A stretch of 64,000 nucleotides of DNA. Origin: an uncultured Candidatus Saccharibacteria bacterium (lineage in GTDB: Bacteria; Patescibacteriota; Minisyncoccia; Phycocordibacterales; DATGWK01). This document shows, piece by piece, positions 4,483 through 39,531 of the stretch (positions within the stretch are counted from its first letter, which is position 1; the number at the start of each line of letters is the position of its first letter). The notes under the pieces are model-generated. The model did not search any database, was not told where the DNA came from, and saw nothing but the letters and a program-made list of their open reading frames with translations. Where the stretch lies: NCBI GenBank assembly GCA_964428845.1, contig CAYRZH010000005.1:1647-65646 (forward strand), written 5' to 3'. Position numbers and translations under genes: made by a program.

Positions 4483-4511
4483 TTGACACATACCAATGAT
4501 GAGTGTAGAAT
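4483..4511 (+). promoter_or_regulatory. Sigma70-type promoter TTGACA-17-TAGAAT driving GC-rich cassette 1
   Basis: TTGACA at 4483-4488, a 17-nt spacer and TAGAAT at 4506-4511, 15 nt after the upstream stop codon. Confidence 0.45.
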
Positions 4512-4679
4512 GCGGCGAGTATACAAAGCAGTTCTTTGGCGTAACCTTGTTGGTGGTCATAGCCAAAAGATGCTGATAAAAACTTTAATAGTTCGGCATT
4601 TTCTGGCTATGACTACCAGTGTGGTATGTCCTCTGGCAAAATCAAAACTGGCGAAAGCCTTGAGAAAGGGAAAAGCGCC

Positions 4680-5291
4680 ATGCACAAGCAAACTGCAGAG
4701 TTGATTGGCCGGATCGCCCAGAATCTTCCGGACATGGATGGAGACATCATGCAGGGCTGGATCAACAACCCCCGTGGTCTCCAGGGGGCTCTTAGATTGG
4801 CCCTCTGCCAACCAAAAGCCGGATCTGTTCCGAAGGAGGAAACTCCTCTCGACACCATCATCCGTGTCGATCGCACCATCCGTCCTGCCTACCCAAGCTG
4901 GGCAACGGAGGTGATGCACCCCGAACTGGAGACTGTTGGGCCTGCCGAGTACGACCTTGCCAAACGAATCAATCTCTGGTTCCACAACGCCCAGATAGTC
5001 GAAGGGCGATCGATGGGCACTGTCATCTACGGATTTCTGAAGGCAACCGATGGTCTGAAAACATGTCTCGGCCTTCACGGCGCAGTGGAGATTCAGCAGA
5101 AGGGCATCGTCGTTTTCCGAAAACTCTTCGGAGGTAGGGCAGTGTTCTGCTGGAAGTCGGTCGTTCGCGACCGCGATGGCAGCCTCCTCGTTCCGTACGT
5201 CTATGACGACGGTGTCAGTGTTGTGGTGCGCTGGCGCTGGCTCGGCCATGACTGGGTCTCCGACGGCCCTGCGGCTCGCTTCGTAAGTTGA
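4680..5291 (+). CDS. Hypothetical protein encoded in GC-rich cassette 1 (203 aa from ATG 4680; alternative start ATG 4626 gives 221 aa)
   Basis: ORF in a ~60% G+C stretch, with GAAAGGG SD-like site 9 nt upstream of ATG 4680 and on the same strand as the promoter and terminator. The competing antisense ORF 4557-5537(-) overlaps the next gene and looks like an antisense artefact. No family recognised. Confidence 0.4.
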   Translation: MHKQTAELIGRIAQNLPDMDGDIMQGWINNPRGLQGALRLALCQPKAGSVPKEETPLDTIIRVDRTIRPAYPSWATEVMHPELETVGPAEYDLAKRINLWFHNAQIVEGRSMGTVIYGFLKATDGLKTCLGLHGAVEIQQKGIVVFRKLFGGRAVFCWKSVVRDRDGSLLVPYVYDDGVSVVVRWRWLGHDWVSDGPAARFVS

Positions 5292-5392
5292 CACTTGGGA
5301 CTTAGTCCCTCGGGTCTTCTGGACCTCTTGATCTTTGTCCTTTGTATCGCGGCCATTTGCCGCAACGTACTCCAAAACGGTAACAATGGAAG

Positions 5393-5490: not shown

Positions 5491-7419
5491 ATGGACAACG
5501 ATCGCATCACATATTTCGCAGAGACCGACTCGCGCAATAAGCGAGTAGCATTTGGTATAAAATCAAAAGACCGATCTCGCCACGTCTACGTCATAGGTAA
5601 GACAGGTATGGGTAAATCCACCCTTCTTGAGAATATGGCTGTCCAAGACATCCAAAATGGGGAAGGCATGGCTTTCATAGATCCACACGGCAAGACTGCC
5701 GAGCTCCTACTTGAATACGTACCACAAGATCGCATGAAAGATGTGGTATATTTCGCGCCTTTTGACACCGAATACCCGATTTCCTTCAACGTCATGGAGG
5801 ATGTTGGTCCCAACAAACGCCATTTGGTTGCAAACGGTCTCATGAGTGCATTCAAAAAGATTTGGGTCGATGCTTGGTCGGCCCGCATGGAGTACATTTT
5901 GAATAATATTTTACTCGCTCTTCTCGAGTACCCAGATTCGACCCTGATCGGTGTAAATAGAATGCTAGCCGATAAAGACTATCGCAAGAAGGTCGTCGAC
6001 AATATCACCGATCCGTCGGTAAAAGCTTTTTGGACAGACGAGTTCGCAAAGTATGGCGATCGATATATGCAAGAAGCGGGAGCGGCAATTCAAAATAAAA
6101 TTGGGCAGTTTATCGCTAACCCTTTGGTGCGTAATATCATCGGCCAACCAAAATCGAGTTTCGATCTGCGAAAGATGATGGATGAAAACAAGATAATGAT
6201 CGTCAATCTCTCCAAGGGTCGCGTGGGCGAGGCCAACGCCAATCTCTTGGGTAGTATGCTCATCACAAAGATCTATCTGGCGGCCATGTCTCGTGCTGAT
6301 ACAAGTGAGAGTAAACTCAAGTCTCTTCCACAGTTCTATCTTTATGTCGACGAATTTCAGTCTTTTGCCAACGAATCTTTCGCCGACATTCTTTCGGAGG
6401 CTAGAAAATACAAGTTGAATCTAACCATGGCTCATCAATATATCGAGCAAATGTCGGAAGAAGTTCGAGCGGCAGTGTTTGGTAACGTCGGTACCATGAT
6501 CGTTTTCCGAGTGGGCGCTTACGACGCCGAAGTCCTCGAGAAGGAATTTGCCCCCACCTTTAGTGTAGAAGATCTGGTCAATCTGGGGTTTGTACAGATA
6601 TATCTTAAACTTATGATCGACGGCGTGACGTCTCCACCTTTTTCGGCAACCACACTGCCGCCGATCGATAAACCAGACATTTCATTCAGAGACGATATCA
6701 TAGAAAACTCAAGAAAAACCTTTGCTTCTCCAAGGAGTGAAGTGGAAGAGCAAATCAAAAAATGGCACGAGCCAGTAACTTCTATACGAAGAGATGATAG
6801 ACCAAGGCCGCCGCAAGGGACTGTAGAGTTTTCGCCGCGTCCGCAAACCCAAGCGCCGTCGTCTATGCCATCCCAACTGCCTCAACAACCGTCCCAACCG
6901 CAACCTGTTTCGAAGGTGTCACAACCACCACAACCCTCACAACCACCGCCTGCACCGCAACCTCCGCAACAAACTCCGCCACCTCCAAGACCTCCAGAGC
7001 CGCCCAGATCTATCCAGCCCACTTCTCCTCAACGGCCCCTTCAACAATCACCGCAGCCGCCGAGACCGGATTCCCATCGAGATCAACTTCCGCATCAGGC
7101 TCGACCAGTTTCTCTAGACACGCTCAAAAAAGATAAAGGACCAAGTGGTAAAAATCTTTCAGAGTTGAAAAACGCCCTTAGGGATTTGGTAGAACAGACA
7201 AAACAGCACAGCGAAAAAAAGGATGAGGGGCAGGAAGGGAAACACAACAACAAACCTCAAGAAAAACCGGCGATAGGGAATGGAAATCATAAATCCCAAG
7301 TCAAAGATAATCCTAAGCCTTCAAAAGATTCACCGCCACAAAGTCACCCCCCTCAAAAAGAAAAACCTCGGGAAGTTCCAGAAGATGTACTCCGCAAAGT
7401 CATCAACGGATCAAAGTAA
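5491..7419 (+). CDS. VirD4/TraG/TraD-like type IV secretion coupling ATPase with long C-terminal Pro/Gln-rich low-complexity tail
   Basis: Walker A VIGKTGMGKSTLLENM and Walker B-like YLYVDEFQSF. The N-terminal ITYFAETDSRNKR matches the CPR 'T4SS DNA-binding domain' protein family. The last ~210 aa are PQPSQP-type repeats. Confidence 0.6.
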   Translation: MDNDRITYFAETDSRNKRVAFGIKSKDRSRHVYVIGKTGMGKSTLLENMAVQDIQNGEGMAFIDPHGKTAELLLEYVPQDRMKDVVYFAPFDTEYPISFNVMEDVGPNKRHLVANGLMSAFKKIWVDAWSARMEYILNNILLALLEYPDSTLIGVNRMLADKDYRKKVVDNITDPSVKAFWTDEFAKYGDRYMQEAGAAIQNKIGQFIANPLVRNIIGQPKSSFDLRKMMDENKIMIVNLSKGRVGEANANLLGSMLITKIYLAAMSRADTSESKLKSLPQFYLYVDEFQSFANESFADILSEARKYKLNLTMAHQYIEQMSEEVRAAVFGNVGTMIVFRVGAYDAEVLEKEFAPTFSVEDLVNLGFVQIYLKLMIDGVTSPPFSATTLPPIDKPDISFRDDIIENSRKTFASPRSEVEEQIKKWHEPVTSIRRDDRPRPPQGTVEFSPRPQTQAPSSMPSQLPQQPSQPQPVSKVSQPPQPSQPPPAPQPPQQTPPPPRPPEPPRSIQPTSPQRPLQQSPQPPRPDSHRDQLPHQARPVSLDTLKKDKGPSGKNLSELKNALRDLVEQTKQHSEKKDEGQEGKHNNKPQEKPAIGNGNHKSQVKDNPKPSKDSPPQSHPPQKEKPREVPEDVLRKVINGSK

Positions 7420-20111: not shown

Positions 20112-20148
20112 ATAGAGTAATAAGATATGGGGGTAATATTACTCGTAG

Positions 20149-20176
20149 TTGACATTTGTGCTAGTTTGTGTAATCA
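20149..20176 (+). promoter_or_regulatory. Sigma70-type promoter TTGACA-16-TAATCA driving GC-rich cassette 2, preceded by the 10-bp palindrome GTAATATTAC (20133-20142)
   Basis: TTGACA at 20149-20154 and TAATCA at 20171-20176. AAAGGAA SD-like site 7 nt before ATG 20241. Confidence 0.35.
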
Positions 20177-20240
20177 TTAAGTCAGGACATCCTTCAAGTA
20201 CAAATCGAAACGAAACCACCCTTTTGAAAGGAATAGAAAC

Positions 20241-20798
20241 ATGAAATTGCTTGATGAAGCTATCCTTTTTGCGGGCTCCCGAAGAGGGGCTCCGCTAAGT
20301 GATCTCGAGGTCACGCTCCTCGTCCTACTCATGGACAGGGTCAGGTGGCCGGTGCCGCAGCAGGTCTTCGAGGCCTGGGAGGGGAACTTCTACAACTGCG
20401 CTGTCGAGCTGGGTATCGGGAGGCCTGGGGAGGAAGAAGTCTTTCTCGTTCGCCGACCGAACACCGATCGGTATTACCCCGGTCAGTGGCATATGCCGGG
20501 GAAGGTCATTCTGCCGGGGATGAATATCCAAACCACTCTGGCGGCTCTCATTGACAATGAACTTGGTGGTGTGGATCTCGGACATATGACTCGGATCGAT
20601 ACATTCGAATTCTCGAAGGTTGATCGTCCGCGTGGTCAAGGTGTCTGTTTCCTGTTCCACGCTTCTGTGGATGTTGCGACCGCGGAACTGCTTCCCAACG
20701 GCCAGTTCTTCCCGGTTGACCAACTGCCGGAACCAATGATCGGCCACCACATCCCCATGATCAGAAGGCTGTTCTACGGTCGAGGCATCTCGCTCTAG
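20241..20798 (+). CDS. Nudix-fold protein with a degenerate Nudix box (GC-rich cassette 2)
   Basis: PGQWHMPGKVILPGMNIQTTLAALIDNELGGV occupies the Nudix box (GX5EX7REUXEEXGU) but most catalytic Glu/Arg residues are replaced. About 60-65% G+C. Confidence 0.5.
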   Translation: MKLLDEAILFAGSRRGAPLSDLEVTLLVLLMDRVRWPVPQQVFEAWEGNFYNCAVELGIGRPGEEEVFLVRRPNTDRYYPGQWHMPGKVILPGMNIQTTLAALIDNELGGVDLGHMTRIDTFEFSKVDRPRGQGVCFLFHASVDVATAELLPNGQFFPVDQLPEPMIGHHIPMIRRLFYGRGISL

Positions 20799-20814
20799 GA
20801 CCAGCACTCATACC

Positions 20815-20853
20815 CCCCCCGACCGCGCATGCGCGGTCGGGGGTTATTTTTTT
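20815..20853 (+). terminator. Strong rho-independent terminator (12-bp GC stem, CATG loop, T9)
   Basis: CCCCCGACCGCG-catg-CGCGGTCGGGGG followed by TTATTTTTTT. The T-run supplies the last codons and stop of the convergent DegT-like gene. Confidence 0.7.
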
Positions 20854-21941
20854 AGAAACAAACTTATTTGCTCACAAACATAGTCCACCTCTTCATCCTT
20901 TAGATATGGGTGTATTGGGAGGGATAAGATGTGATTTACTTTTTCCTCTACCACAGGGAGATTTAGTGAATTGTATTCAGCAAAACATTTCTGTTTATGA
21001 ATCGGAATAGGGTAGTGAATGAGGGTGCCTATCTCTTTTTCTTTGAGAAACGATTGGAGTCCGTCGCGATTTTCTGCTTCTATTACAAACAAATGATTTA
21101 CATGCCCCACATCTTTTCTAAGACCGGGCAATATAATCCCCCGAACACTCTGTAGACCTTCCAAATACTTCTCGGCTATTCTCACTCGGCGCTCATTGTT
21201 TTGATCCAACGTTTTTAGTTTTTCCGACAAAATTGTCGCTTGTAATTCGTCGAGTCGGCTATTTATACCGCGGACCTCATGCTCGTATCTGTTTTTCTGC
21301 CCATAATTGCGTAAAGAAATACATTTTTCTGCGAGTGAAGCATCATTTGTGGTTATAAGTCCTCCGTCGCCGACTCCGCCTAAGTTTTTTGTCGGATAAA
21401 AACTAAAACAGCCAAAAACTCCAAATGATCCGACTTTTTTACCTTTAAACTCTGCTCCGTGTGCTTGAGCGCAATCTTCTACCATATGCAGGTTATGTTT
21501 TTTTGATATATCCAATAAAGAGTCCATGTCTGCGGGCTGACCATACAAGTGGACAGGAATAATGGCGCGTGTTCTTGAAGTTATCTTTTCTTCTATCTTT
21601 TTGACATCAATGTGGTAGAAATCATCAATATCGACAAAAACAGGTATTGCTCCTACTGCCGATATGGAGAGTGCCGTCGCGACTGCTGAAAGGGGTGTGG
21701 TGATGACTTCATCACCGGGACCAATCCCAAGAGCAAGAAGAGCAATCTGGAGAGCTTCCAACCCGTTAGCAACGCCAACTGCATGTTTTGTGTCGATGTA
21801 CCCGGCAAAATCTGTCTCAAACTTTTTAACCTCTGGACCAAGCACATAATGTCCAGATTCAAAAACCCTCTGCATTGCCGCGAGGATATCCCTTTTTTCT
21901 TCAGCGCTTTGGCCGTTTAGTATATTGAATGAAATCTTCAT
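20844..21941 (-). CDS. DegT/DnrJ/EryC1/StrS-family PLP-dependent sugar aminotransferase
   Basis: Start taken at MKISFNILNG (ATG rc at 21939-21941). Conserved region ...VLGPEVKKFETDFAGYI... and PLP-lysine context (FSFYPTKNLG). Confidence 0.75.
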   Translation of the reverse strand: MKISFNILNGQSAEEKRDILAAMQRVFESGHYVLGPEVKKFETDFAGYIDTKHAVGVANGLEALQIALLALGIGPGDEVITTPLSAVATALSISAVGAIPVFVDIDDFYHIDVKKIEEKITSRTRAIIPVHLYGQPADMDSLLDISKKHNLHMVEDCAQAHGAEFKGKKVGSFGVFGCFSFYPTKNLGGVGDGGLITTNDASLAEKCISLRNYGQKNRYEHEVRGINSRLDELQATILSEKLKTLDQNNERRVRIAEKYLEGLQSVRGIILPGLRKDVGHVNHLFVIEAENRDGLQSFLKEKEIGTLIHYPIPIHKQKCFAEYNSLNLPVVEEKVNHILSLPIHPYLKDEEVDYVCEQISLFLKK

Positions 21942-22326
21942 AATTTCTAATGTAATCTTTCTCGTCGTATTCTTGGTCGGCCAAAACCAGGAGGGAAGTC
22001 CCTGGCTTAAAGCTGTGCATGACGTGCCATACATACGGGAAAAGCCACAGTCCTTCGTTATTTTTGTTTAATACGACGCTCGTTTTGTTTTTTCCGTCGT
22101 CGAGATCTACTATGCATTCTCCCGTGGTGCAGATCAAGATTTGGTTTGTGAGGTGGTGGGTGTGACCTCCGCGCTTATCGGCGTCTTTCATGCCAGTAAT
22201 AGAAAGCACCTTCTTTATTGGGAAAGGTATACTACCTTCTTTTGCCGGTTGGTCTGCTTGAAGCATACAGAGAGTGCCATTTTTAGTATCGAAGGAAGGG
22301 AATTGTATCAGTTTAAGGGGGGGCAT
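21901..22326 (-). CDS. WxcM/FdtA-like cupin, probable dTDP-4-keto-6-deoxyhexose 3,4-ketoisomerase
   Basis: 141-aa cupin with ...KRGGHTHHLTNQILICTTGEC... and LWLFPYVWHVMHSF motifs. Confidence 0.55.
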   Translation of the reverse strand: MPPLKLIQFPSFDTKNGTLCMLQADQPAKEGSIPFPIKKVLSITGMKDADKRGGHTHHLTNQILICTTGECIVDLDDGKNKTSVVLNKNNEGLWLFPYVWHVMHSFKPGTSLLVLADQEYDEKDYIRNYEDFIQYTKRPKR

Positions 22327-22347
22327 AATTTGTGCAGTAGACTTTAA

Positions 22348-23358
22348 TTATATACCAAACACTCGATCGAGCCCCAGCATCTTTAACAACCTCTTTTTTC
22401 TACCAGGTGGCATGTTTCGAGTACGTTCCTCATTCAATCGTCTGCAGATGGGCAAGTATTCATCGAGTGTCATTTTTGGCTTCCAGCCAAGTGCCCGTAT
22501 TTTTGTCGCGTCAAGCGAATATCTCACGTCCTGACCGGGTCTATTTTCCCCATGCTCATAAAAATTTTCATCTTTCCCCATGACTCTTAGTACCTTTTTT
22601 ATAACCTCTAAATTGGTCAGTTCTTCATTTCGAGTGATATTGTAAATTTCACCATCAGCTCCCTTTTCCATAATCAAAAGTATCGCCGAACAATTGTCTT
22701 CAGTATAAATCCAGTCGCGTGTGTATGAGCCATCTCCATCAACTATAGCCCTTTGTCCTTTAATAGCCCGCTTCATTACCCTAGGGATGAGTTTTTCGGG
22801 GCGCTGACCGTAGCCATAGTTGTTGGAACTTCGACAAATTCTCCATCGTAGGCCGTAGGTACGACCCCATCCCATGACGAGTTGGTCGGCAGCGGCCTTT
22901 GTCGCTGAGTAAGGATTTGAAGGTGTCAGTCTGTCTGTTTCCTTAAAAGACCCTTCTAGTATGTCCCCATAAACCTCATCTGTTGAAATCTGAACAAATA
23001 CTGGACGTTTTTCCTCGGGCATTCTCCGCACAAGCTCAAGAAGGTTATATACACCCTGCACATTGCTCTTGAAGAAGGCAAGATTGTCTTTGATCGAATT
23101 AACCACATGTGACTCGGCTGCAAAGTTTACAATCCAGGCTACACCTTCAGGTAATTCCTTTAAGTCGCAAATATCCTTCTTTATAAAACTATAATTTGGG
23201 AAACGCTCAAAGTTGGTGTCTTCCCTTATGGCATAGGTCATTTTGTCTACGTTTATGACAAAAAATCCTTTTTTTAAAACCATTTCTACAAAAGCGCTTC
23301 CGATAAAGCCAAGGCCGCCGGTTACCAGTATTTTTTTAGGATTGCTTACGTCTGCCAT
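22348..23358 (-). CDS. rfbB: dTDP-glucose 4,6-dehydratase (RmlB/RfbB)
   Basis: KILVTGGLGFIGSAFV Rossmann motif and YSATKAAADQL catalytic YxxxK. Length 336 aa. Confidence 0.8.
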   Translation of the reverse strand: MADVSNPKKILVTGGLGFIGSAFVEMVLKKGFFVINVDKMTYAIREDTNFERFPNYSFIKKDICDLKELPEGVAWIVNFAAESHVVNSIKDNLAFFKSNVQGVYNLLELVRRMPEEKRPVFVQISTDEVYGDILEGSFKETDRLTPSNPYSATKAAADQLVMGWGRTYGLRWRICRSSNNYGYGQRPEKLIPRVMKRAIKGQRAIVDGDGSYTRDWIYTEDNCSAILLIMEKGADGEIYNITRNEELTNLEVIKKVLRVMGKDENFYEHGENRPGQDVRYSLDATKIRALGWKPKMTLDEYLPICRRLNEERTRNMPPGRKKRLLKMLGLDRVFGI

Positions 23359-23362
23359 TTTA

Positions 23363-24316
23363 TTATCTAGTCGCTCGAAGGACTATATACTGCTTGATTA
23401 CTCGTAATATATCAAGTTTCTTAACACACCCATAGGTCCAAGATGAATCGATTGCCCGGACACGATCATAGGCTTTTTGCAGGGCTCTCACATATAACCG
23501 ATAAATCGTCCGGTCGAATATCGAGACCGGGTAGGGACGGATTTTTCCACCTGATGTCATGTAAATTTTAAGACCGTGGAAGTGGTATAGGATAAGGGGA
23601 AATTTTTTATTGGAAATTTTTTCGGTCCCTTCGATCTTGCCACCTTTTTTTACGTCAAACTTAAAACGGTCTGTATTCCACGAAGCTACATCCACACCAG
23701 GGTCTGTAAGTACGAAGACTTTTTTAAATCGTGTTGGCCAGTCATTTAAATATAACTGGTCGCCAAACTTTCCGTCTTCATATCGATTGTAGCACCACTC
23801 TATACACCTGTCTTTCCACCATCTTAAACACTCCAAACCACACTCGTCGTTTCTAAAAATCATCATTCCAACATTATATTTACCACTCGTCTTCTCGCGC
23901 TCTTTATGTTTCTCGGAAAATGCGTGGGGGATTATCATTATCGAATTGTTACCAAATTGGTGGTAAATATCATCAACTGGTGCGTAAAAGTACATATCAA
24001 CATCAACATAAGTGACAGTGTCCATACTCGGATTTTTTTCGAGGATATAGAGAGGTAAGCATGAGCTAAACATCCAACAATATTCTGCCGTTGTTCGACC
24101 GGGTTTTACCGCAAGCATTCGGTCATCTTCAACATCAGATAGTTTCAGTAGTTTTGTTCTATCTAAATTTAGTTTTTGGAGCATCGAGTGGCTTTCGTTG
24201 TCCATACAGAGCATCCAGAGGACAAAATCTGGGCATTGTTCCGTTAGGGAACGATGGAGAGCTACCGCCCGGGTCAAAAAGCCCTTATCAAAAACCGCGC
24301 AGAAGTTATACATCAT
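23363..24316 (-). CDS. Nucleotide-diphospho-sugar transferase (GT-A fold, GT8/Nucleotid_trans-like)
   Basis: 317 aa with DxD-type motifs (YVDVDMYF) and a HFHG motif. Not searched. Confidence 0.45.
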   Translation of the reverse strand: MMYNFCAVFDKGFLTRAVALHRSLTEQCPDFVLWMLCMDNESHSMLQKLNLDRTKLLKLSDVEDDRMLAVKPGRTTAEYCWMFSSCLPLYILEKNPSMDTVTYVDVDMYFYAPVDDIYHQFGNNSIMIIPHAFSEKHKEREKTSGKYNVGMMIFRNDECGLECLRWWKDRCIEWCYNRYEDGKFGDQLYLNDWPTRFKKVFVLTDPGVDVASWNTDRFKFDVKKGGKIEGTEKISNKKFPLILYHFHGLKIYMTSGGKIRPYPVSIFDRTIYRLYVRALQKAYDRVRAIDSSWTYGCVKKLDILRVIKQYIVLRATR

Positions 24317-24349: not shown

Positions 24350-24376
24350 AAAAAAACGGCCCCGAAGGCGGGGCCG
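24350..24376 (-). terminator. Rho-independent terminator of GC-rich cassette 3 (minus strand)
   Basis: On the minus strand: CGGCCCCG-ccuu-CGGGGCCG followed by TTTTTTT. The T-run continues into the -35 (TTGTGC-17-TAGTAT) of the downstream GT8-like gene. Confidence 0.6.
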
Positions 24377-24416
24377 CTGTGTTCTTCTCTGTCTTCACTC
24401 TGTCCGACTGGTCCGG

Positions 24417-25103
24417 TCACCGGCCGACAGGCTTCCATCCACCGCGCACATCGGCGAAGGATGGGCGATGAGGATCGAGAACCCATTGGAGCAGGTAACA
24501 GTTGTGGTCGACGATTCGCGGGTCCCCTCGCCTCACTTCATCCGGGGTGAAGATTGTCCACTCACCCTCGAAACCCTCCACGTCCACCACAGAGACCTTC
24601 CTGCGGTGCATGATTGTCGCGCAAGCGCAACGTCTTTCGGGTTCGTCGTGGATCGTCACACCGAGGAACTGGATACCCGGTCTCATGGGGAGGAGATCAT
24701 CTCCGGCGTCACGGAAATCCCTTTCCAGGGCGCTTGCTGGCGTATCGAATCTTCGGATAACTGTGCACGGGCTGTGGTACAGCCCGGCCCACGCGTCGCC
24801 GACCTCGGTCGCCGGATCGCGAAGCTTCAGGGCAAATCCCAGAAACTCGTTACCCTTCCACACTTCATGAACGATCTGAACCGAAGCGCAGAATCCTGCC
24901 ATGCCGACGAGAAGTTCGAAGACCTCTTTCGGCACGCCGCCCATCGTTGTACTCCTGCTTCCATGCCGGGCCCGTTCGGTCAGCTCTGCGATGTGGGAGA
25001 TGATTGGGGCGAGCTCCACGAGCGGAATGTCCCTGATCATCCCCAGGGCACTAAGCGCCAGGGACTGGTGAGAGCTGTCTCGCGTCTGCGCAATCGTCTT
25101 CAT
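24417..25103 (-). CDS. Hypothetical protein, 228 aa (GC-rich cassette 3)
   Basis: ORF in ~57% G+C DNA, flanked on the same strand by a perfect consensus promoter and a terminator. AAAGAAAGGG SD-like site before the ATG. No family recognised. Confidence 0.5.
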   Translation of the reverse strand: MKTIAQTRDSSHQSLALSALGMIRDIPLVELAPIISHIAELTERARHGSRSTTMGGVPKEVFELLVGMAGFCASVQIVHEVWKGNEFLGFALKLRDPATEVGDAWAGLYHSPCTVIRRFDTPASALERDFRDAGDDLLPMRPGIQFLGVTIHDEPERRCACATIMHRRKVSVVDVEGFEGEWTIFTPDEVRRGDPRIVDHNCYLLQWVLDPHRPSFADVRGGWKPVGR

Positions 25104-25166
25104 GGCAACCCTTTCTTTGGTTGGTTGTGTTCGGGGCGAAAACCACGGGAACTCCTATCTTCCTGT

Positions 25167-25195
25167 ATTATAGTACTTCTATTGACTATTGTCAA
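25167..25195 (-). promoter_or_regulatory. Perfect consensus sigma70 promoter TTGACA-17-TATAAT (minus strand) for cassette 3
   Basis: On the minus strand TTGACA (25195-25190), a 17-nt spacer and TATAAT (25172-25167). The -35 is embedded in the partial palindrome TTGACaataGTCAA. Confidence 0.5.
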
Positions 25196-30183: not shown

Positions 30184-31248
30184 TTAAGATCTGATATGTT
30201 TCCACTCAAGCGGCGTGCCACGCTCGATGTCTTTCTTTGCTGTCATGCCCATAACTTTGTGAATATTTTCCGGTGCCAGTCCAAAAGCTGGTCGGATACA
30301 TCGAACATTTTTTTTAGTAAATTTTTCGCCCATCTTTATATCCGAAACAGCAAAAAGTGAGCGACGATGCTCTGCCCCAATCTCTTCCTCCTTATCTCGT
30401 GCGTAGTTCGGTTTCCCTAGGGAGGATTCGACTTCTCTAACAGATTTAACTAATGATGCAAATTCTTTCGGCTCAAGTGAAAACGACGAATCAGGCCCAC
30501 CGTCAGAACGGGCGAGGGTCATATGTTTCTCGATTATGCTCGCGCCAAGAACTACCGCACCGAGAGAAACATTTATTCCAAGGGAGTGATCTGACAAGCC
30601 ACTTACTACTCCGAATCTTTTTGCAATATCTGGAATGGTCTTTAGATTCATCTTGCTTGGGTCGGCGGGGTAGATACTTACGCAATGAAGGACTGCGATC
30701 TCCTTTGTTCCAGATTTTTGTAAGGTCTTTATCGCTAAAGAGATTTCTTTGGCAGAAGCCATACCTCGCGCCAATATAACGGGCTTTTTGGTCTTGCCGA
30801 TCTTTTCTAGTAAAGGCAGGTCTGTAATCTCGTATGAAGCAACCTTATAGAGAGGAATTTTCAATTTTTCTAGAAAATCTACTGCTGTCTCGTCGAAGGG
30901 GGTTGAAAATACGACTAGACCTTTTCTTTCGGCGTACTTCTTTAGTTTCGCTTGCCATTTCCAGGGGGTATATGCTTCCTCGTATAGTTTATAAAGAATT
31001 TTATCTTTCCAAACATTATTTACCCTAACCCGGAAGTAGTCGTTGTCGCAGTTCAAAGTCATTGTGTCTGGTGTATATGTCTGAAATTTGATGGCATCAA
31101 CTTTTGCCAATGCCGCGGCATCGATTATTTCCATGGCTCGTTTCAGGCTTTGATTATGGTTGCCAGACATTTCTGCTACGATGAAGACCGGCTCTCCCGG
31201 GCCGATCCTCCTTTTACCCTTAGGTGTTTTAATCGTTATGTGTCTCAT
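30184..31248 (-). CDS. pseI: N-acetylneuraminate-synthase family enzyme, probable pseudaminic acid synthase PseI
   Basis: NeuB TIM-barrel (IFIVAEMSGNHNQSLKRAMEIIDAAALAKVDAIKFQTY) plus a C-terminal SAF domain. Co-operonic with pseB/pseC/pseH/pseF homologs. Confidence 0.7.
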   Translation of the reverse strand: MRHITIKTPKGKRRIGPGEPVFIVAEMSGNHNQSLKRAMEIIDAAALAKVDAIKFQTYTPDTMTLNCDNDYFRVRVNNVWKDKILYKLYEEAYTPWKWQAKLKKYAERKGLVVFSTPFDETAVDFLEKLKIPLYKVASYEITDLPLLEKIGKTKKPVILARGMASAKEISLAIKTLQKSGTKEIAVLHCVSIYPADPSKMNLKTIPDIAKRFGVVSGLSDHSLGINVSLGAVVLGASIIEKHMTLARSDGGPDSSFSLEPKEFASLVKSVREVESSLGKPNYARDKEEEIGAEHRRSLFAVSDIKMGEKFTKKNVRCIRPAFGLAPENIHKVMGMTAKKDIERGTPLEWKHIRS

Positions 31249-31259
31249 TTATCAGTATT

Positions 31260-31877
31260 TTACTTTTTCTCTAGGTATCTCTCGATAAGAAACAAATCCC
31301 TGGGTTCTCTGATAAGAATGGAATTTATTCCAGCTTCCTTGGCACCCCCTATGTCACAGACAATATCATCACCGATCATTAGGGCCTCGTGTGCCTCTAC
31401 CTCGAAAGAGGTTAGAACGTCCTTAAAAACTTTTTTGTGAGGTTTTTCAAACTCCTTACCATTTTCCTGTGCGAAGAAAAATTTATCAAAATATTGCTCC
31501 AACTGCAACGCCTGAACTTTTCTTTTTTGTACCTCTACTGCACCATTTGTGAGTATAGTGAGCTTATATTTTTTGGACAAACTTCTCAAAACCGGCTCTG
31601 CCTCTGGATAAAGTTTCAGCTCCGGTAAATGCCCACGGTAAACTCGGACGAGTTCCTCTATCGAAATATCATCGAGTGGAAACTTCTCTTTGAGTTCATC
31701 AAAATTTCTGCCGCGCCCATTTCCAAGGAAGGACTCACACAATGAATTAAAAATTTCTTCTTTTGATAGATTTCTTTTATTGCTTACATAGTCAGCAACA
31801 GCACGAAAACCGCTTAAAACATATTCATGTTCGCTCGAGAGGGTGTTGTCTAGATCAAAGATTAATAATTTTATCAT
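31260..31877 (-). CDS. HAD-superfamily hydrolase (subfamily IA-like)
   Basis: N-terminal LLIFDLDNTL motif I and ...MIGDDIVCDIGGAKEAG motif IV. Confidence 0.6.
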   Translation of the reverse strand: MIKLLIFDLDNTLSSEHEYVLSGFRAVADYVSNKRNLSKEEIFNSLCESFLGNGRGRNFDELKEKFPLDDISIEELVRVYRGHLPELKLYPEAEPVLRSLSKKYKLTILTNGAVEVQKRKVQALQLEQYFDKFFFAQENGKEFEKPHKKVFKDVLTSFEVEAHEALMIGDDIVCDIGGAKEAGINSILIREPRDLFLIERYLEKK

Positions 31878-32841
31878 GGGGAATGAACAGATCTTTGTTG
31901 TAACGCATCATGACCAAATCGGCCTGGAAACTTTTCTGCTCTGGCACTTTCTCGCCACGAAGAAGTCTCACAAGAAATTCAGCGCTGTTTCCTCCTGCAG
32001 CCAGCGCTAGGGGTGAACCTCCGCCGAAACGAGCTGGATTGGCTTCAAGGAAAAAAATCTTGCCATCTTTTGTTTTGAAACATTGAATTGTGTTGTGGCC
32101 GATAAGGCCAAGCGTCTGGCCGATTTTTTTTGTCAAAGCAATCATTTCTTTTTCATTTTTTGTAATCGTGACTTTTGATTCTCCACCCACGACTTTCAGT
32201 CGAATTCGCGGGATGGTCGAAATTGGCTTTCCAGAGAAATCAGCGAAATAGTCAATAGAGTATTCTGTGCCCTCGATTTTTTTCTGGATTATTTTTCCGG
32301 TGAGCTCTTGTTTTTTTAGTTCTTCGATGCTTCCAATCACCTCTACGCCTATACTAGCGGCACCAATTATGGGCTTTATGATGCAAGGGAATTGCAAATT
32401 TTTAGGTGGCTTGAGCCAGCTTTCTATGGGTCTTAAGTTTTTTGCTTTTAGAAATTTGTAAAACTTCCACTTATCATTGCAGATTGATGCGGCCTTTAAA
32501 GATGGCACCATGATCTTTGTACCCAATTTTTCAAAGCGCTTCTTGTTTTTCGCAAGATACATTACATCTTCGTCTCGGGTAGGGATAATCAGGGAAATTT
32601 TTTCTCTGGTAATGATTTCGGCCAGACGGGCAGGGAATTTTTTGCTATCCATGCGTGGCACTAGATATCCTTTATCAGCGAGGTAGAGACCGGGGCAAAA
32701 TGGGTCAATGTCGGTGGCGACGGTTTTACCCTCTACACCGAGAGATGAAAGAGCGGTGCGGAAGTGCTCAAAAAGGTGGCTCTTATTGCCGATACTTGTA
32801 AATAGAAAGTTTACGGACTTATTTGATTTTGCTTTTTTCAT
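31855..32841 (-). CDS. ATP-grasp domain protein
   Basis: 328 aa with an ATP-grasp-like layout (...CIIKPIIGAASIGVEVI..., ...FFLEANPARFGGG...). Possibly an amide-forming tailoring enzyme for the nonulosonate. Confidence 0.45.
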   Translation of the reverse strand: MKKAKSNKSVNFLFTSIGNKSHLFEHFRTALSSLGVEGKTVATDIDPFCPGLYLADKGYLVPRMDSKKFPARLAEIITREKISLIIPTRDEDVMYLAKNKKRFEKLGTKIMVPSLKAASICNDKWKFYKFLKAKNLRPIESWLKPPKNLQFPCIIKPIIGAASIGVEVIGSIEELKKQELTGKIIQKKIEGTEYSIDYFADFSGKPISTIPRIRLKVVGGESKVTITKNEKEMIALTKKIGQTLGLIGHNTIQCFKTKDGKIFFLEANPARFGGGSPLALAAGGNSAEFLVRLLRGEKVPEQKSFQADLVMMRYNKDLFIPHDKIINL

Positions 32842-33766
32842 GAGAGACTATCTGTCTTATGCCATCGGCAATGCTTATTTCCGGCGACCATCCGGTGGTG
32901 TCTTTGAGCCTGCTTATGTCGCCTCGACTGGCTTCAGGAAATATGGACTCATTGACTTCGGTAAATTTGGCTTCCGGAATTTCTTTTTGTACGAGCCCTG
33001 CGACCTCTGCGATCGTGTTGCTTTTGCCAAAACTCAAATTGATAACGCCAGTGGCATTCTTACAGATTGCCATTTTCATTAACCCTTTCGCCACATCGGT
33101 AGCGTGAATGTAATCAAATGAATTATTTTTGTCAAAGATTTTTAGTGTTTCGCCGCGAAGAGCACCACGTACCCAGCGCGAAATGATGTCTCGCGAATCT
33201 TTACCGTAGACCCGAAAGATCCTGGCATGCGCATAGGTAAATTTACCGCCCATCTGTTCGCTTAAAAATTCAATATCTCGCTCGGTTTGTAATTTGGCTA
33301 TGCCACATAGGTTGCGTGGTTCGATTGCTGAAGATTCACTAAGAATATTGTCCCGTCCTACAACGTTGTAGAGTGATTTATGGTAAATCAGATAACTTGA
33401 AGCAAAAATAATTTTTTTGAGTTCTTCACCTTGGACTATTCTTCGAAGAGTATAATGGGATGCCAAAATATTGTTGTAAAAATTACTTTCCCAAAAATCT
33501 AGACTCTCGGTACTACGCTCAAAATCGGCGGCAAGATGGAAAACATATTCTGGTTCGAAATGGAACGAAAATTGCTCGTCTCTGTGGGACAGGTCACATT
33601 GGAAATACTGAACATCACTAGGGAAGGCTCGAGGCCGCTCGAGCATGTCAACCGCGCGAACCACAGCTCCTTCGGCAGTAAGTAGGCCTACAAGTTCCTG
33701 GCCTATTACACCGGCTGCGCCAGTAACCAAAACTTTTTTATCCTTAAGTGTAACGAGATTTTCCAT
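32819..33766 (-). CDS. NAD-dependent epimerase/dehydratase (extended SDR)
   Basis: VLVTGAAGVIGQELV Rossmann motif and YxxxK (YGIAKLQTE). Confidence 0.65.
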   Translation of the reverse strand: MENLVTLKDKKVLVTGAAGVIGQELVGLLTAEGAVVRAVDMLERPRAFPSDVQYFQCDLSHRDEQFSFHFEPEYVFHLAADFERSTESLDFWESNFYNNILASHYTLRRIVQGEELKKIIFASSYLIYHKSLYNVVGRDNILSESSAIEPRNLCGIAKLQTERDIEFLSEQMGGKFTYAHARIFRVYGKDSRDIISRWVRGALRGETLKIFDKNNSFDYIHATDVAKGLMKMAICKNATGVINLSFGKSNTIAEVAGLVQKEIPEAKFTEVNESIFPEASRGDISRLKDTTGWSPEISIADGIRQIVSHEKSKIK

Positions 33767-33771
33767 TGAAG

Positions 33772-34320
33772 TTACTTCTTATTTATAATGGAGTGAATAA
33801 GCGAATCAGAAAAACGATTTTTTTTCCAAACATGATCGGGCAATCTAGCGTCTCGCTTGAAGCCAGATTTTTCTAAAAGATTGATGTGAAACTTCCTAAA
33901 TGCCCATGTTTCCGTAAAAATTTTGTGCAAAATGAGCTTTTTAAAGGCATAATCGCGGAGCATTACCATGGTTTCGAGAAAAAGCATTGAATATTCGGAG
34001 TGCCTTTTTTCTGTACCTGTTTCCAGGATAAATGATATTTCTCCGCGTTTATTTTCCCAATCAATATGCACAATACCGCAATACCCGATAAGTCTGCCAT
34101 TTTTGTCTAAAATTGAAAAGAGAACCTGGTTCTTATCCCTTTTGAGTTTTTTGTAAAATTTTTCCTGATCCTTGTCAGTCAGCGGTTTGCTCTGCCTCAA
34201 GATGTCCATTTGCTCATTACGCCATTTTTTAAGAAATGGTAAATCTTCTTTGAGTAGATTTGAGAGAATAATATGTCGGCCCAACGAAATTCTTTTTCTT
34301 TTCATAAATTTTAGTATCAA
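33772..34320 (-). CDS. pseH: GNAT N-acetyltransferase, PseH-like
   Basis: 182-aa GNAT whose N-terminal region (LKEDLPFLKKWRNEQMDILRQ) resembles PseH-type acetyltransferases. Located within the pse operon. Confidence 0.5.
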   Translation of the reverse strand: MILKFMKRKRISLGRHIILSNLLKEDLPFLKKWRNEQMDILRQSKPLTDKDQEKFYKKLKRDKNQVLFSILDKNGRLIGYCGIVHIDWENKRGEISFILETGTEKRHSEYSMLFLETMVMLRDYAFKKLILHKIFTETWAFRKFHINLLEKSGFKRDARLPDHVWKKNRFSDSLIHSIINKK

Positions 34321-35222
34321 ACTTTCCGCGAATGAGTAGCAAAACAGATAAGATTACGGCCGAGACCCATATCAGCCAACGCTTCATAAAATTTGTTAAC
34401 TTTTTTAGGTGAGGTTTTGTGCACAAGATTTTCTAACTCGACTCGCGCCTGATGACAAGATTTGCCCTTGGCTTTGTCGATAACGTAGTTGGTGTCTTTG
34501 TTAAGAAGATTTATATCGACAGGGAAGTCGGCCGTAAACCGCTCTGGGCGAAGTCCGGCTGCCTGAACGAGTGCCTCAAGCCCCGTTTTATTGAAGTAGG
34601 AAATATGATCTGGTATAACAATCCAAAAAGGACTTTTCACATAACCATGCTTGTACAAATATAGTTGTAGAATCGAAAAATCGTTTGGTACCACTACAAC
34701 TATAACTCCTTGATTATGAAGTAGTTTCTTGCAATCACCGAGCAATTGGAAAGGATTCAAAACATGCTCCAGAGTATGCTCCATGAAAATAACATCAAAC
34801 TTCTGTTTTTCCTTTATGAGTGATGGGATTTGCTCATAGATATCTCCTTTACGGATAAATGGCAGGCACCTTTTGTTGTGAGTCTTGGTGCCGGAACTAC
34901 TATAGTCGAGGCCTGTGACGGCAAAACCTTTTTTTCTGAAGTAATCTAGAGCCCAGCCTTCGCCGCAGCCAATGTCTAAAAAGCTAAATTTTTCACGGCG
35001 CATTGGTCCGAGCAACTCTTTTATTGTCAGATACTTATCGTCTAGCTTGTTTTTAAAAAAAATAATTTCATCTTTCGAATACGATTGTCTATAGTTACCC
35101 CTTGATTGTTCGTAATACTTATCTATATAGTACTGTTCCAACTCTTTAGGGTTTGGTTTATGTTTCAATTCAAAATAACCAAACTTATTTTTTCTGACAT
35201 TCCTGAAGAGATTATTGCCCAT
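34317..35222 (-). CDS. Class I SAM-dependent methyltransferase
   Basis: FLDIGCGEGWALDYF (motif I) and VTGLDYS. Confidence 0.6.
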   Translation of the reverse strand: MGNNLFRNVRKNKFGYFELKHKPNPKELEQYYIDKYYEQSRGNYRQSYSKDEIIFFKNKLDDKYLTIKELLGPMRREKFSFLDIGCGEGWALDYFRKKGFAVTGLDYSSSGTKTHNKRCLPFIRKGDIYEQIPSLIKEKQKFDVIFMEHTLEHVLNPFQLLGDCKKLLHNQGVIVVVVPNDFSILQLYLYKHGYVKSPFWIVIPDHISYFNKTGLEALVQAAGLRPERFTADFPVDINLLNKDTNYVIDKAKGKSCHQARVELENLVHKTSPKKVNKFYEALADMGLGRNLICFATHSRKV

Positions 35223-35241
35223 TTGGGGGTGGCTAGACTGT

Positions 35242-35913
35242 TTAAACTATTTTGCGGACGACACGAAAGGCTTCAGCACCAGTGAGACCGACTTCAATTC
35301 CACGATACTTCGAAAGTATTTCAATACCCTCAAGCGAACGAGGATGAGGATATTTTCGTAATTCGTCCCCATAGAAATTCATCAAAGCTTTTTTCTCCTC
35401 AACATATTTTGAGATATCAACGTAGTGATTTGGTTTAAAAACGCGGTGGTCCTTAATCTGCCATTCTGTGCAGGAAAGAACTTCAAAAGATAGAATTTCG
35501 GATACACAAAAGTTGGGTTGTGGTCGGCAAGCAGTTAACACTGCTCCGCAGGTTAGTCGGTGGTCTACATTCAGGTCATCGATATGATGTGTATAAACCA
35601 CATCGGGCTTAACTTCAGCAATAACCTTTTCTACTGCTTGTGCCAGACTGATCAGAGAAACCGTATCGAATTTGTTATCCGGGAAATTTTCTAGGAAAAG
35701 TTTGGCACCCAATTTATCAGAGACACCTCTAGCTTGAGAAAATCTTTTTTCAGGATCACTTACAGATCCCCGAGAATCTTCTCCGTTTGCTAGGATTAGA
35801 ATGGATATAGAATCACCGCGGTCACGGTGAACGCAAAGCGTGCCGCCAGCGCCGAGAACCTCATCGTCTGGGTGCGCGACTACAGCCAAAATTTTTTTAT
35901 TTTTTTCCATCAT
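35242..35913 (-). CDS. PIG-L/LmbE-family N-acetylglucosaminyl deacetylase
   Basis: ILAVVAHPDDEVLGAGGTL and HxDH (HHIDDLNVDH) motifs. Confidence 0.65.
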   Translation of the reverse strand: MMEKNKKILAVVAHPDDEVLGAGGTLCVHRDRGDSISILILANGEDSRGSVSDPEKRFSQARGVSDKLGAKLFLENFPDNKFDTVSLISLAQAVEKVIAEVKPDVVYTHHIDDLNVDHRLTCGAVLTACRPQPNFCVSEILSFEVLSCTEWQIKDHRVFKPNHYVDISKYVEEKKALMNFYGDELRKYPHPRSLEGIEILSKYRGIEVGLTGAEAFRVVRKIV

Positions 35914-36631
35914 TTTTTATTGGTGAAATTTTAACTTTTGCAGTTACGGTATCTCCCGTAAATTCTGCTTCACTAAATTCAAATCTCTGTTCTCCAACGT
36001 CCAAAAACGCCCTTGGGTAACCATCAGCATCAAGCATTCTTATAAAATCATATAGCATTCTTCCTGACAAATCACCCAGGATTCTACTTTGTTCGGGCTT
36101 CCTGCGTTTGAAAGTAAAACCACGACCTCGTTGGGGTTTTGGCTTCGGTTGCTTCAAAAGTATTTCGCTCATCATTTCATAGACGATGGCAGAAATCTTA
36201 TAAAATATATCTTGAGCAGAGCCTCGACTCATGTCAACGGGCTTTTTTAAATAAATCGGTCCAGTATCAAGCCCTGCCTCGACGCGAAGTGCGGAAATTT
36301 TTACTTTGTAAATTCCTCTAACGATGTGGTTCTGGATCGGGCTACCGCCGCGACCGTATGGCAGGTTTGCTTCATGAAATACAACACACTCAAAATTTTC
36401 ATAAATTTCAGGCGGGATTATCCAAGACCAATGTGGGAAAAATACAAACCTCGGTTTTATTTTAGAAAGACGTTCAAAAGTAAGTTTTTTGGGCGATGTT
36501 ATGAGAAGTTTCCGGTAACCCTTCGGGACTTTCCATTCACTGAACCTTTTTATGTTCCAGGGTCGAATCGTCGCTACGACAATATTGTCGAGGTTAGCAT
36601 TATCTTTTTGCCTTTTTGTTTTTAAGCTCAT
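35897..36631 (-). CDS. Formyltransferase-domain protein (Fmt N-terminal-domain-like)
   Basis: ...VVFHEANLPYGRGGSPIQNHIVRG... matches the formyl_trans_N catalytic region (the Asn/His/Asp triad context). Confidence 0.5.
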   Translation of the reverse strand: MSLKTKRQKDNANLDNIVVATIRPWNIKRFSEWKVPKGYRKLLITSPKKLTFERLSKIKPRFVFFPHWSWIIPPEIYENFECVVFHEANLPYGRGGSPIQNHIVRGIYKVKISALRVEAGLDTGPIYLKKPVDMSRGSAQDIFYKISAIVYEMMSEILLKQPKPKPQRGRGFTFKRRKPEQSRILGDLSGRMLYDFIRMLDADGYPRAFLDVGEQRFEFSEAEFTGDTVTAKVKISPIKNDGKK

Positions 36632-37317
36632 TTCAGCAGTTTATATTTTATTTCAGCAATTTTCCAATCCTCCTCATTATCAATGTCCTGCATTTCTGAT
36701 TCTGGTATTGGTATAGATCTAGTATTATCAGTGAAGATCTTTTTTTGATTCAAGAAATTTTTCACATTTAGGTAAAAAAACTGTCCTGTATCATGATATG
36801 CAGGTTCCAAATCCTGTGAGCGCACCACAGCATTTTCTGGCCACATCATTTTTAATTTTCCAAACTCGTCGATCCTCAAGGCTCTCTGAATTGGGTAAGA
36901 AAAACGGGCGACTGGCAAAACTGAATCGGCACCAGTCTCTACTATCAAATCCATTGCTTTCTTGAGATTTTCAATTTTTAAAAAGGGAGCGGTCGGGTAA
37001 ATACAGCAGGCCAAATCAAATTCTCGGCCAAGACTTTTGTACCGAACGAGAACTTCTTCCATAACGTCGGGGATCTGTGCAAGATCACCCGAATTCTTCT
37101 CTGACCTAAAGAAGGGGACTTTGGCACCAAAACCTAAGGCGACTTCGGCGATCTCTTTATCATCTGTTGAGACCATTACTTCGTCAAAAAGTCCGCTCGT
37201 TAGTGCGGCATCAATAGAATATTTTATAATCGGCTGTCCGGAAAAGAATTTTATATTTTTCTTCGGAATTCTTTTGCTACCGCCTCGCGCAGGTATAATG
37301 GCAACTATCTTTTTCAT
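36628..37317 (-). CDS. pseF: CMP-nonulosonate (pseudaminic acid) cytidylyltransferase, PseF/NeuA-like
   Basis: IVAIIPARGGSKRIPKKNIKFFSGQPII N-terminal motif of the acylneuraminate cytidylyltransferase family. Confidence 0.7.
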   Translation of the reverse strand: MKKIVAIIPARGGSKRIPKKNIKFFSGQPIIKYSIDAALTSGLFDEVMVSTDDKEIAEVALGFGAKVPFFRSEKNSGDLAQIPDVMEEVLVRYKSLGREFDLACCIYPTAPFLKIENLKKAMDLIVETGADSVLPVARFSYPIQRALRIDEFGKLKMMWPENAVVRSQDLEPAYHDTGQFFYLNVKNFLNQKKIFTDNTRSIPIPESEMQDIDNEEDWKIAEIKYKLLK

Positions 37318-37323
37318 AGGATG

Positions 37324-39471: not shown

Positions 39472-39504
39472 AAAAAAAGACCACCAAGTTTTATCTCGGT
39501 GGTC
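39472..39504 (-). terminator. Rho-independent terminator of GC-rich cassette 4 (minus strand)
   Basis: On the minus strand GACCACCgagauaaaacuuGGUGGUC followed by TTTTTTT. A TAGACA-17-TATTAT promoter for pseB follows immediately at 39454-39426. Confidence 0.5.
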
Positions 39505-39531
39505 GACGGAAGTGATTTGTAGATGGTCAAT

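Follow-up and report, generated by a model that had tools for sequence, protein, structure and literature searches.

A GC-rich Nudix-like gene with predicted transcription signals of its own in a surface-glycan locus of an uncultured Saccharibacteria bacterium

We analysed a 64,000-nt stretch of DNA (hereafter, the window) from contig CAYRZH010000005.1 of an uncultured Candidatus Saccharibacteria bacterium, and describe here a plus-strand gene at positions 20241-20798 that encodes a Nudix-like protein of 185 amino acids. The protein has three N-terminal helices followed by a Nudix fold, and it belongs to a small, uncurated family found mostly in Patescibacteria. A Shine-Dalgarno-like motif, GAAAGGAA, can be read directly from the sequence at 20226-20233 (plus strand), about 8 nt before the ATG. 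Further upstream on the same strand lies a putative sigma-70-type promoter (20149-20177), made up of a TTGACA -35 element (20149-20154), a 17-nt spacer and a TG-extended AATCAT -10 element (20172-20177). This arrangement (TTGACA-17-TGnAATCAT) scores 10 out of 12 against the sigma-70 consensus, in addition to the TG extension, and is predicted to function as a promoter. Downstream of the gene, an intrinsic terminator (20816-20853, plus strand) combines a perfect 12-bp G+C stem and a 4-nt loop (20816-20843) with the run TTATTTTTTT. Its hairpin is the longest perfect one of the window and the strongest among the hairpin terminators there, and its T-run (20844-20853) overlaps the stop and the final codons of a convergent DegT/FdtB-like gene (20844-22034, minus strand). 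An earlier reading of this DNA, made from the letters alone (the sequence-only reading), had already described the stem, the overlap, and a promoter and terminator belonging to the gene, and all of these were recovered. Together, these sequence signals point to an autonomous transcription unit with its own promoter and a strong terminator.

The gene lies downstream of a run of glycosyltransferase and PMT_2 genes, directly between a GT4 gene and the convergent DegT operon. This facing minus-strand operon encodes the DegT (FdtB-like) protein, an FdtA ketoisomerase, an RmlB-like 4,6-dehydratase and a 317-aa protein with no Pfam match. These Pfam families suggest a pathway for a deoxythymidine diphosphate (dTDP)-3-amino-3,6-dideoxyhexose. 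The longest open reading frame (ORF) of the DegT gene (20844-22034) overlaps the upstream FdtA ORF (21901-22326, minus strand) by 134 nt, and its Pfam match begins at residue 46; hence, the true start of the DegT gene is probably an internal methionine (MKISF...).

The composition of the Nudix-like gene sets it apart from its surroundings. Its G+C content is 56%, compared with 42% for the remainder of the window, and its G+C content at third codon positions (GC3) is 65%, compared with 36-45% in the neighbouring genes. This confirms the sequence-only reading of the gene as compositionally foreign. The pattern over the three codon positions (GC1>GC2<GC3) is that of a real reading frame. An Rfam scan detected no riboswitch or small RNA in the gene unit, nor in the window as a whole. 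A word-indexed search of 5.8 billion proteins with the single protein matched only the protein itself, and a scan of genome contigs produced zero matches. The best non-self match in protein libraries displayed 37% identity. The closest relative, with 48-51% identity, is encoded in a Saccharibacteria metagenome-assembled genome (L006), where the same layout is found: a TTGACA-16-TATTAT promoter, the gene, a hairpin with T7 and a convergent DegT gene whose product is 66% identical to that of the window. This shared layout indicates that the unit is older than the split between the two genomes and that its signals have been conserved.

The 185-aa protein belongs to the Nudix superfamily (Pfam PF00293, clan CL0261), as the sequence-only reading had proposed. 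The Pfam NUDIX model matches residues 64-176 with 26.4 bits, above its gathering score of 21.1. Structure prediction by AlphaFold2 from the single sequence reached a mean per-residue confidence (pLDDT) of 37, and we used instead a model built with a 133-sequence alignment (pLDDT 93.7, predicted TM-score 0.86). In this model, N-terminal helices at residues 2-13, 21-33 and 40-49 precede the Nudix sandwich, and a helix at residues 170-182 closes the chain. Foldseek matched the model to many Nudix structures of the PDB with a probability of 1.0. The top matches were Bacteroides AraR, MutT, NrtR, NudC and GDP-mannose mannosyl hydrolase (GDPMH), all with E-values near 1e-7. The TM-scores of these matches are 0.5-0.6, since the N-terminal helices are left unmatched.

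An alignment with NudI and the column statistics of the family place the degenerate Nudix box at K88 to G110 (KVILPGMNIQTTLAALIDNELGG; 20502-20570, plus strand). The register is K88-x5-M94-x7-A102-L103-I104-D105-N106-E107-L108-G109-G110. Compared with the GX5E part of the canonical signature, G is replaced by K88 and E by M94. In the REUXEEXGU part, R corresponds to A102, E to L103, U to I104, X to D105, the next two E to N106 and E107, X to L108, G to G109 and U to G110. The only canonical residues kept are therefore the hydrophobic I104, E107 and G109, and among the four glutamates and the arginine of the signature, the last glutamate (E107) is the sole survivor. The sequence-only reading was right that the catalytic Glu and Arg positions are mostly substituted, although the box string that it quoted starts one residue early. 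No intact catalytic box was found in the protein, and the family consensus also lacks the glutamate of RE and the first glutamate of EE; a canonical Nudix pyrophosphohydrolase (GX5EX7REUXEEXGU) was rejected on this test. The classical mechanism requires the REUXEE glutamates, which hold two or three metal ions (PMC5389931). Since E107 alone remains, classical multi-metal pyrophosphohydrolysis is excluded for this protein. MutY-like and ADP-ribose pyrophosphatase readings were also discarded, as the catalytic residues of the former and the characteristic residues of the latter are missing and the corresponding profile matches are weak or absent.

An exhaustive HMMER search of 1.84 billion cluster representatives retrieved 327 relatives at E<=1e-3, among them 53 at E<=1e-10. 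Most relatives are 160-200 aa long and share about 35% identity over residues 19-177. The Pfam NUDIX model matched 28 of the 34 relatives scanned; no Pfam or NCBIfam model specific to the family was found, and the generic NUDIX, MutT and "Nudix family hydrolase" models match it weakly. Likewise, a literature search for the family returned no characterised member and nothing relevant. The 133-sequence alignment displayed a set of near-invariant positions: E56 (94%), R72 (99%), D76 (92%), H84 (95%), P86, G87 (100%), E107 (95%), R131 (92%), P163 (96%) and H170 (85%). The full set of motifs consists of N-terminal L[TS]xxE...PxPxxVFxAW helices, E56, R72, D76, W83-H84-x-P-G87, E107, R131-G132, F-F-P...L-P163 and H170. 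We define the family here by this "WH-x-PG / RG / HH" motif set, every residue of which is present in the 185-aa protein. All near-invariant positions are thus retained, including the seven polar residues E56, R72, D76, H84, E107, R131 and H170. The family hidden Markov model (HMM), whose alignment includes the protein, scores it with 182 bits.

The box of the family as a whole reads [TS]88-x5-[ED]94 (78%)-x7-R102 (80%)-L103 (61%)-x-x-x-E107 (95%)-x-G109 (52%), and the glutamate of RE and the first glutamate of EE are missing family-wide. Judged from these columns, the family as a whole has conserved a reduced box that is not a product of erosion, and the gene is not decaying. The "eroded" box of the sequence-only reading is therefore reduced, as was claimed, but it is not a sign of decay. 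This bears on the possibility that the gene is what a transfer event left behind, a non-functional remnant decaying in place. Its atypical composition, the lack of a close homologue and three substitutions at positions usually conserved in the family would fit such a remnant. Yet the ORF is intact with the codon-position pattern of a real gene, the fold is predicted with confidence, and the seven family-invariant polar residues are all retained. Furthermore, promoter, gene, terminator and synteny have been kept in L006, while the DegT proteins diverged to 66% identity. We consider decay very improbable.

Two of the substituted positions vary together. Of the 133 sequences, 99 combine an acidic residue at 94 with R102, 21 lack the two residues, and the other 13 are mixed (Fisher 1.3e-13, without a phylogenetic correction). 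The subclade without either residue, to which the protein of the window belongs, keeps R72, D76, H84 and G87 in 21 of 21 members and E107, R131 and H170 in 20 of 21. We read this joint loss as that of a coupled structural pair, with the functional site apparently kept. The GX5E glutamate probably stabilises the loop-helix-loop (Srouji et al., PMC5389931).

A similarly reduced box is known from the GDP-sugar glycosyl hydrolases (E. coli NudD, also called WcaH, and Gmm; PDB 1RYA and 2I8T). These enzymes hydrolyse nucleoside diphosphate (NDP)-sugars at the C1 of the sugar, releasing NDP and the free sugar. The box of NudD and Gmm is GX5EX7RLX2AEXGU (Srouji et al., PMC5389931), that is, RLxxAE where the family has RLxxxE. 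Both groups keep the GX5E acid, the arginine and, of the box glutamates, only the last one. Compared with the reduced box, the protein of the window keeps only L103, E107 and G109, with A102 in place of the arginine and M94 in place of the acid. Both groups also have an N-terminal helix before strand 1 (P-x-x-V-F-x-A-W in the family, EDFATVV in GDPMH). An hhalign comparison of the family with GDPMH gave a probability of 95.7% and paired E56 with D22, R72 with R37, R102 with R65 and E107 with E70, positions that were checked on the 1RYA sequence. As with the family, GDPMH genes lie inside surface-polysaccharide loci beside ManC-, SDR- and DegT-type genes (compare gmm/wbdQ). There are also differences: the family has two more helices at its N-terminus, H84 and H170 are invariant residues peculiar to it, and the pathway next to the gene in the window looks like that of a dTDP-3-amino-6-deoxyhexose, not of GDP-mannose.

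GDPMH and type 1 isopentenyl-diphosphate isomerase (IDI) are active enzymes despite equally reduced boxes, that of IDI being GX5EX7RRX2YEXGU (PMC5389931). IDI itself was rejected as an identity for the protein, as no IDI chain occurs among the best 60 PDB profile matches and no cysteine follows the WH-PG motif. The isomerase relies on a catalytic cysteine and glutamate and on a His/Glu metal site.

The best Foldseek and profile matches came from another group, formed by the effector (Nudix) domains of the Nudix-related transcriptional regulators NrtR and Bacteroides AraR, and by COG1051/YjhB-like proteins (PDB 3GZ8, 5BS6 and 2FML). These proteins share with the family an acidic residue on strand 1 and an "RG" motif after the Nudix helix. 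NrtR and AraR have degenerate boxes, and their ligands (ADP-ribose and L-arabinose, respectively) are bound and not hydrolysed, whereas the box of 2FML is intact, unlike that of the family. A further difference from the NrtR/AraR group is that the canonical glutamate for Mg binding, E107, is retained in the family. The 185-aa protein also has the N-terminal helices and no winged-helix DNA-binding domain.

This likeness raises the question of an NrtR-like autoregulator. Such a protein would control its own gene by binding a palindrome at the promoter, with a nucleotide or sugar as the ligand that triggers the switch in transcription. A perfect 10-bp palindrome, GTAATATTAC, is indeed present at 20133-20142, 6 nt upstream of the -35 element, as the sequence-only reading had noted, and the fold resembles the effector domains of NrtR and AraR. 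The suggestion that the palindrome is a regulator site did not hold up. With 71 perfect palindromes of 10 nt in the window (one per 901 nt), a single occurrence is without statistical weight, and the chance of at least one in any 60-nt stretch is about 6%; the palindrome was not found upstream of the orthologous promoter of L006 and is probably fortuitous. Moreover, the protein lacks a DNA-binding domain and ends about 15 residues past the Nudix fold, and NUDIX is the only Pfam domain detected in it, as in 34 relatives. Of all the explanations considered here, autoregulation is the least probable.

A more serious alternative is that the protein of the window is a pseudo-Nudix, a non-catalytic subunit for ligand sensing or scaffolding that would pair, as a hetero- or homodimer, with a canonical Nudix hydrolase or with the sugar-nucleotide enzymes. 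It would then resemble the effector domains of NrtR and AraR, which both the profile search and Foldseek place among its nearest solved relatives, or else the N-terminal domain of NudC, a rudimentary Nudix domain. There are precedents for a Nudix scaffold with a substituted box used for binding, namely NUDT21/CFIm25, DBC1, the NUDT9-H domain of human TRPM2 and the N-terminal domain of NudC; no specific sequence relationship between these and the family is detectable, and they come from different organisms, partners and contexts. NUDT21 likewise has an RLxxE motif (PMC5389931).

Domain architectures also speak for this alternative. In the L015 ORF (7176-8549), P0092 and P0022, the family domain is joined to a canonical Nudix domain whose box is intact (GFLDVGETHEDAAQRELKEETGY), and fusions in either order of the two domains occur. 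In P0003, P0106, P0112 and P0132, it forms tandem doublets, as expected for an obligate dimer partner. The additional box residues lost in the protein of the window point the same way. Apart from this argument, the family domain is also fused to a low-molecular-weight phosphotyrosine phosphatase domain, and P0111 is another of the fusion proteins. Against it, most family members are stand-alone proteins, and a canonical Nudix box is encoded nowhere in the window. The seven polar residues that hardly vary, two histidines and the metal-binding glutamate among them, look more like those of an active site, and the activity of GDPMH and IDI indicates that a reduced box need not abolish catalysis. 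We regard a non-catalytic role, of the non-hydrolytic kind that the sequence-only reading suggested, as a distinct possibility and the main rival, albeit not the one that we favour.

The distribution of the family is centred on the Patescibacteria, ultra-small bacteria also known as the Candidate Phyla Radiation (CPR). A pattern-based scan that covered each GTDB species with one genome identified 24 loci, 21 of which bear Patescibacteria/CPR names (Saccharibacteria, Staskawicz-, Taylor-, Magasanik-, Komeili-, Andersen-, Falkow- and Moranbacteria, Peribacteria, Paceibacterota and Minisyncoccia). The remaining three are one unclassified "bacterium", one with a Gammaproteobacteria label and one with a Bdellovibrionales label. 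Meanwhile, a scan of metagenomes added 39 family loci.

The genomic neighbourhoods of these copies are dominated by genes of sugar metabolism. We first scanned with Pfam the three genes on either side of 27 copies. Among these 149 proteins were 19 Epimerase/SDR, 12 GT2, 7 GT1, 6 DegT, 6 RmlC-type and 6 NTP_transferase (sugar-phosphate nucleotidyltransferase) proteins. When 44 non-redundant copies were considered, 34 had a nucleotide-sugar or glycosyltransferase gene within 3.5 kb; by copy, SDR genes were found at 23, DegT at 15, GT2 at 11, nucleotidyltransferases at 10, and RmlC-like and GT4 genes at 9 each. Several loci display operon-like orders, such as SDR-family-DegT (L014), family-DegT-SDR-RmlC (L023), family-RmlC-SDR-GT2 (L027), ManC-like-family (L001 and L011) and GT4-family with a 4-nt overlap (L005). 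The family is best filed as an uncurated variant of the Nudix fold that is tied to glycan-precursor metabolism in Patescibacteria.

The window also contains a minus-strand cluster of the nonulosonic-acid type (30184-39401), which includes a NeuB-family synthase (30184-31248), a HAD hydrolase, an ATP-grasp protein, SDRs and a DegT/PseC-like aminotransferase (37324-38475, minus strand). The gene at 38439-39401 (minus strand) groups by BLAST with SDR-type dehydratases, and to judge from its sequence its product may be PseB-like.

These neighbourhoods also bear on the link to NAD/ADP-ribose signalling or phage defence that the sequence-only reading had suggested. Phage morons are single genes with their own promoter and terminator and a deviant composition. 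The Nudix-like unit has a moron-like anatomy, in that a single ORF stands between a near-consensus promoter and a strong terminator and its G+C content exceeds that of the flanks by 14 points. It could accordingly be a moron on a prophage, or else a Nudix protein of NAD/ADP-ribose signalling or anti-phage defence. JGI annotates the relatives P0151 and P0004 as "ADP-ribose pyrophosphatase YjhB". Unlike a moron, the unit lies outside any prophage, in a chromosomal glycan locus; it has no phage-family match, and it is syntenic in a related genome. No matches to PADLOC (E<=0.1) or PHROG were obtained, a family-pattern scan of 2.9 million viral contigs returned zero relatives, and the residues used by ADP-ribose pyrophosphatases are absent. 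Moreover, the flanks of the gene hold glycosyltransferase and sugar-nucleotide genes in place of phage or defence genes, and the neighbourhoods of homologues revealed the glycan and nucleotide-sugar loci described above and no link to NAD/ADP-ribose or to defence. We therefore regard this group of explanations as quite improbable.

Based on these findings, we propose that the Nudix-like gene was acquired horizontally, is transcribed autonomously and represents a small Nudix family that serves the nucleotide-sugar branch of surface-glycan synthesis, a proposal that we hold to be evenly balanced between right and wrong. With the same even confidence, the 185-aa protein may assist the adjacent deoxy-amino-sugar pathway as an accessory protein directed at NDP-sugars. 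The protein would bind the NDP moiety of a 6-deoxy- or amino-hexose precursor through one divalent cation and arginines, drawing on a polar set formed by E107 together with E56, R72, D76, H84, R131 and H169/H170. The enzymes encoded next to the gene (RmlB-like dehydratase, FdtA isomerase and DegT/FdtB aminotransferase) would supply this precursor, which would then be either cleaved by a non-canonical, GDPMH-like mechanism, by which its pool could be controlled, or held by the protein as a non-catalytic partner. The fold, the state of the box, the conservation within the family, the genomic association, the foreign composition and the transcription signals in the sequence were all observed here, and from these we infer the ligand, the metal site and any catalysis. 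The two invariant histidines and the aspartate suggest catalysis or metal binding, and within the accessory reading we slightly prefer non-canonical hydrolysis with a single metal to binding alone.

Several observations weigh against this proposal. In the PDB profile search, GDPMH was only the 13th-best match (2.5e-5), behind 2fml (1e-10), NrtR (2.7e-7) and AraR (2.6e-6). The catalytic base of GDPMH is His124, which shares with Gln123 the loop that precedes the last strand, and Arg52 follows the PGG motif of the enzyme. Neither Q123/H124 nor R52 has a counterpart in the family: V89 aligns with R52, and the hhalign alignment ends at GDPMH residue 105, with a corresponding loop (LLPNGQFF) that is shorter and has no His or Gln. 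H170 of the family was tried as the counterpart of H124 and rejected, as H124 lies on an earlier loop that the family lacks. The protein also departs from its own family at M94 (E/D in 78%), A102 (R in 80%) and G134 (E in 61%). As for the genomic association, 10 of the 44 copies have no recognised sugar gene nearby, and one clade consists of fusions with the low-molecular-weight phosphatase in a housekeeping context. Furthermore, in a comparison by distance within the loci, the labelled sugar-gene classes account for 40% of the genes right beside family copies, for 32% of those within 2 kb and still for 21% of those at least 5 kb away. Hence, the association is with large glycan loci and not with one proven partner.

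The foreign composition of the gene is shared by other members of the family. Thirteen of the 44 copies exceed their flanks by 8 points of G+C or more, with differences of up to +23 points (L020, L022 and L016). A promoter match of at least 10/12 precedes 7 of 12 GC-enriched copies and 3 of 28 copies of native G+C (Fisher p 0.003), and a strong hairpin with a T-run follows 5 of 12 and 2 of 29, respectively (Fisher p 0.016). In a rough neighbour-joining tree, the GC excess is positive in every measured member of the clade of the window protein (W, L006, L007, L016, L017, L030, L031 and L033). These patterns favour the view of the sequence-only reading that the gene is foreign and expressed independently. 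In L020 and L022, a GC-rich copy occurs within 2 kb of a copy of native G+C, and L039 has three copies with 41, 50 and 54% G+C. Arrays of copies are found in L020 (6083-6553 and 7959-8504), L022 (7764-8393 and 8512-9135) and L039 (5075-5596, 5690-6163 and 6523-7068). These array copies are 27-40% identical to each other, range from 37 to 63% G+C and usually lie beside a DegT-type aminotransferase of 434-446 aa.

The window itself has a second GC-rich autonomous unit at 24355-25195 (minus strand), which comprises a TTGACA-17-TATAAT promoter, an ORF of 228 aa (25103-24417) and a hairpin terminator. Its product matched the family HMM with 17.8 bits and, by hhalign, with a probability of 85.9% (E 5e-6 over 136 columns), and has a cysteine in place of G87. 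It is probably a paralogue from the same Nudix-like family, though a very diverged one. The Nudix-like gene and this ORF bracket the minus-strand dTDP-sugar operon (20844-24316).

Counting this unit, the window has at least four further GC-rich single-gene islands, at 4483-5330 (plus strand), 24355-25195, 39479-40572 and about 57000-57752 (the last three on the minus strand). Their GC3 is 52-69%, compared with 36-45% in the neighbouring genes, and their ORFs produced zero matches to Pfam, PADLOC or PHROG. The window contains only three sigma-70 matches of at least 11/12 (at 4483, 25195 and 57752), each of them directly upstream of a GC-rich island, and strong hairpin terminators were found at the islands ending at 24355 and 39479. 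A GC-rich orphan ORF of 346 aa (39532-40572, minus strand) heads the cluster of the nonulosonic-acid type. Right after the first GC-rich island lies a gene for a TraG/VirD4-type coupling-protein ATPase (5491-7419, plus strand) with a Pro/Gln-rich C-terminal tail of about 250 aa.

These patterns allow for a broader and more speculative interpretation, namely that the Nudix-like gene belongs to a class of single-gene cassettes, rich in G+C and equipped with promoter and terminator, that circulate among Patescibacteria and accumulate in surface-glycan loci. We consider this interpretation unlikely. If it were true, the family would be a fast-evolving, exchangeable module of specificity or conflict with a non-canonical His/Glu/Arg Nudix chemistry. 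It might, for instance, rewire or drain a pool of NDP-amino sugars and thereby vary the cell-surface glycan seen by phages or hosts. A literature search for GC-rich cassettes in CPR bacteria returned nothing relevant.

Overall, we regard these findings as moderately interesting rather than extraordinary. Their most unusual aspect is the recurring format of a GC-rich, self-sufficient cassette, together with the multi-copy arrays. Nudix proteins with reduced boxes have repeatedly revealed either new chemistry, as in GDPMH and IDI, or new binding roles, as in NrtR, AraR and CFIm25, and the family described here is one for which no curated model or characterised member was found. The surface glycans of Patescibacteria are thought to mediate their episymbiotic lifestyle and are, to our knowledge, biochemically unexplored. 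The link of the family to DegT, SDR, RmlA/C-type and glycosyltransferase genes narrows the search to a small set of candidate ligands. Meanwhile, the recurrence of GC-rich, self-sufficient units in AT-rich, reduced genomes provides a lead on how these bacteria may acquire and express foreign genes.

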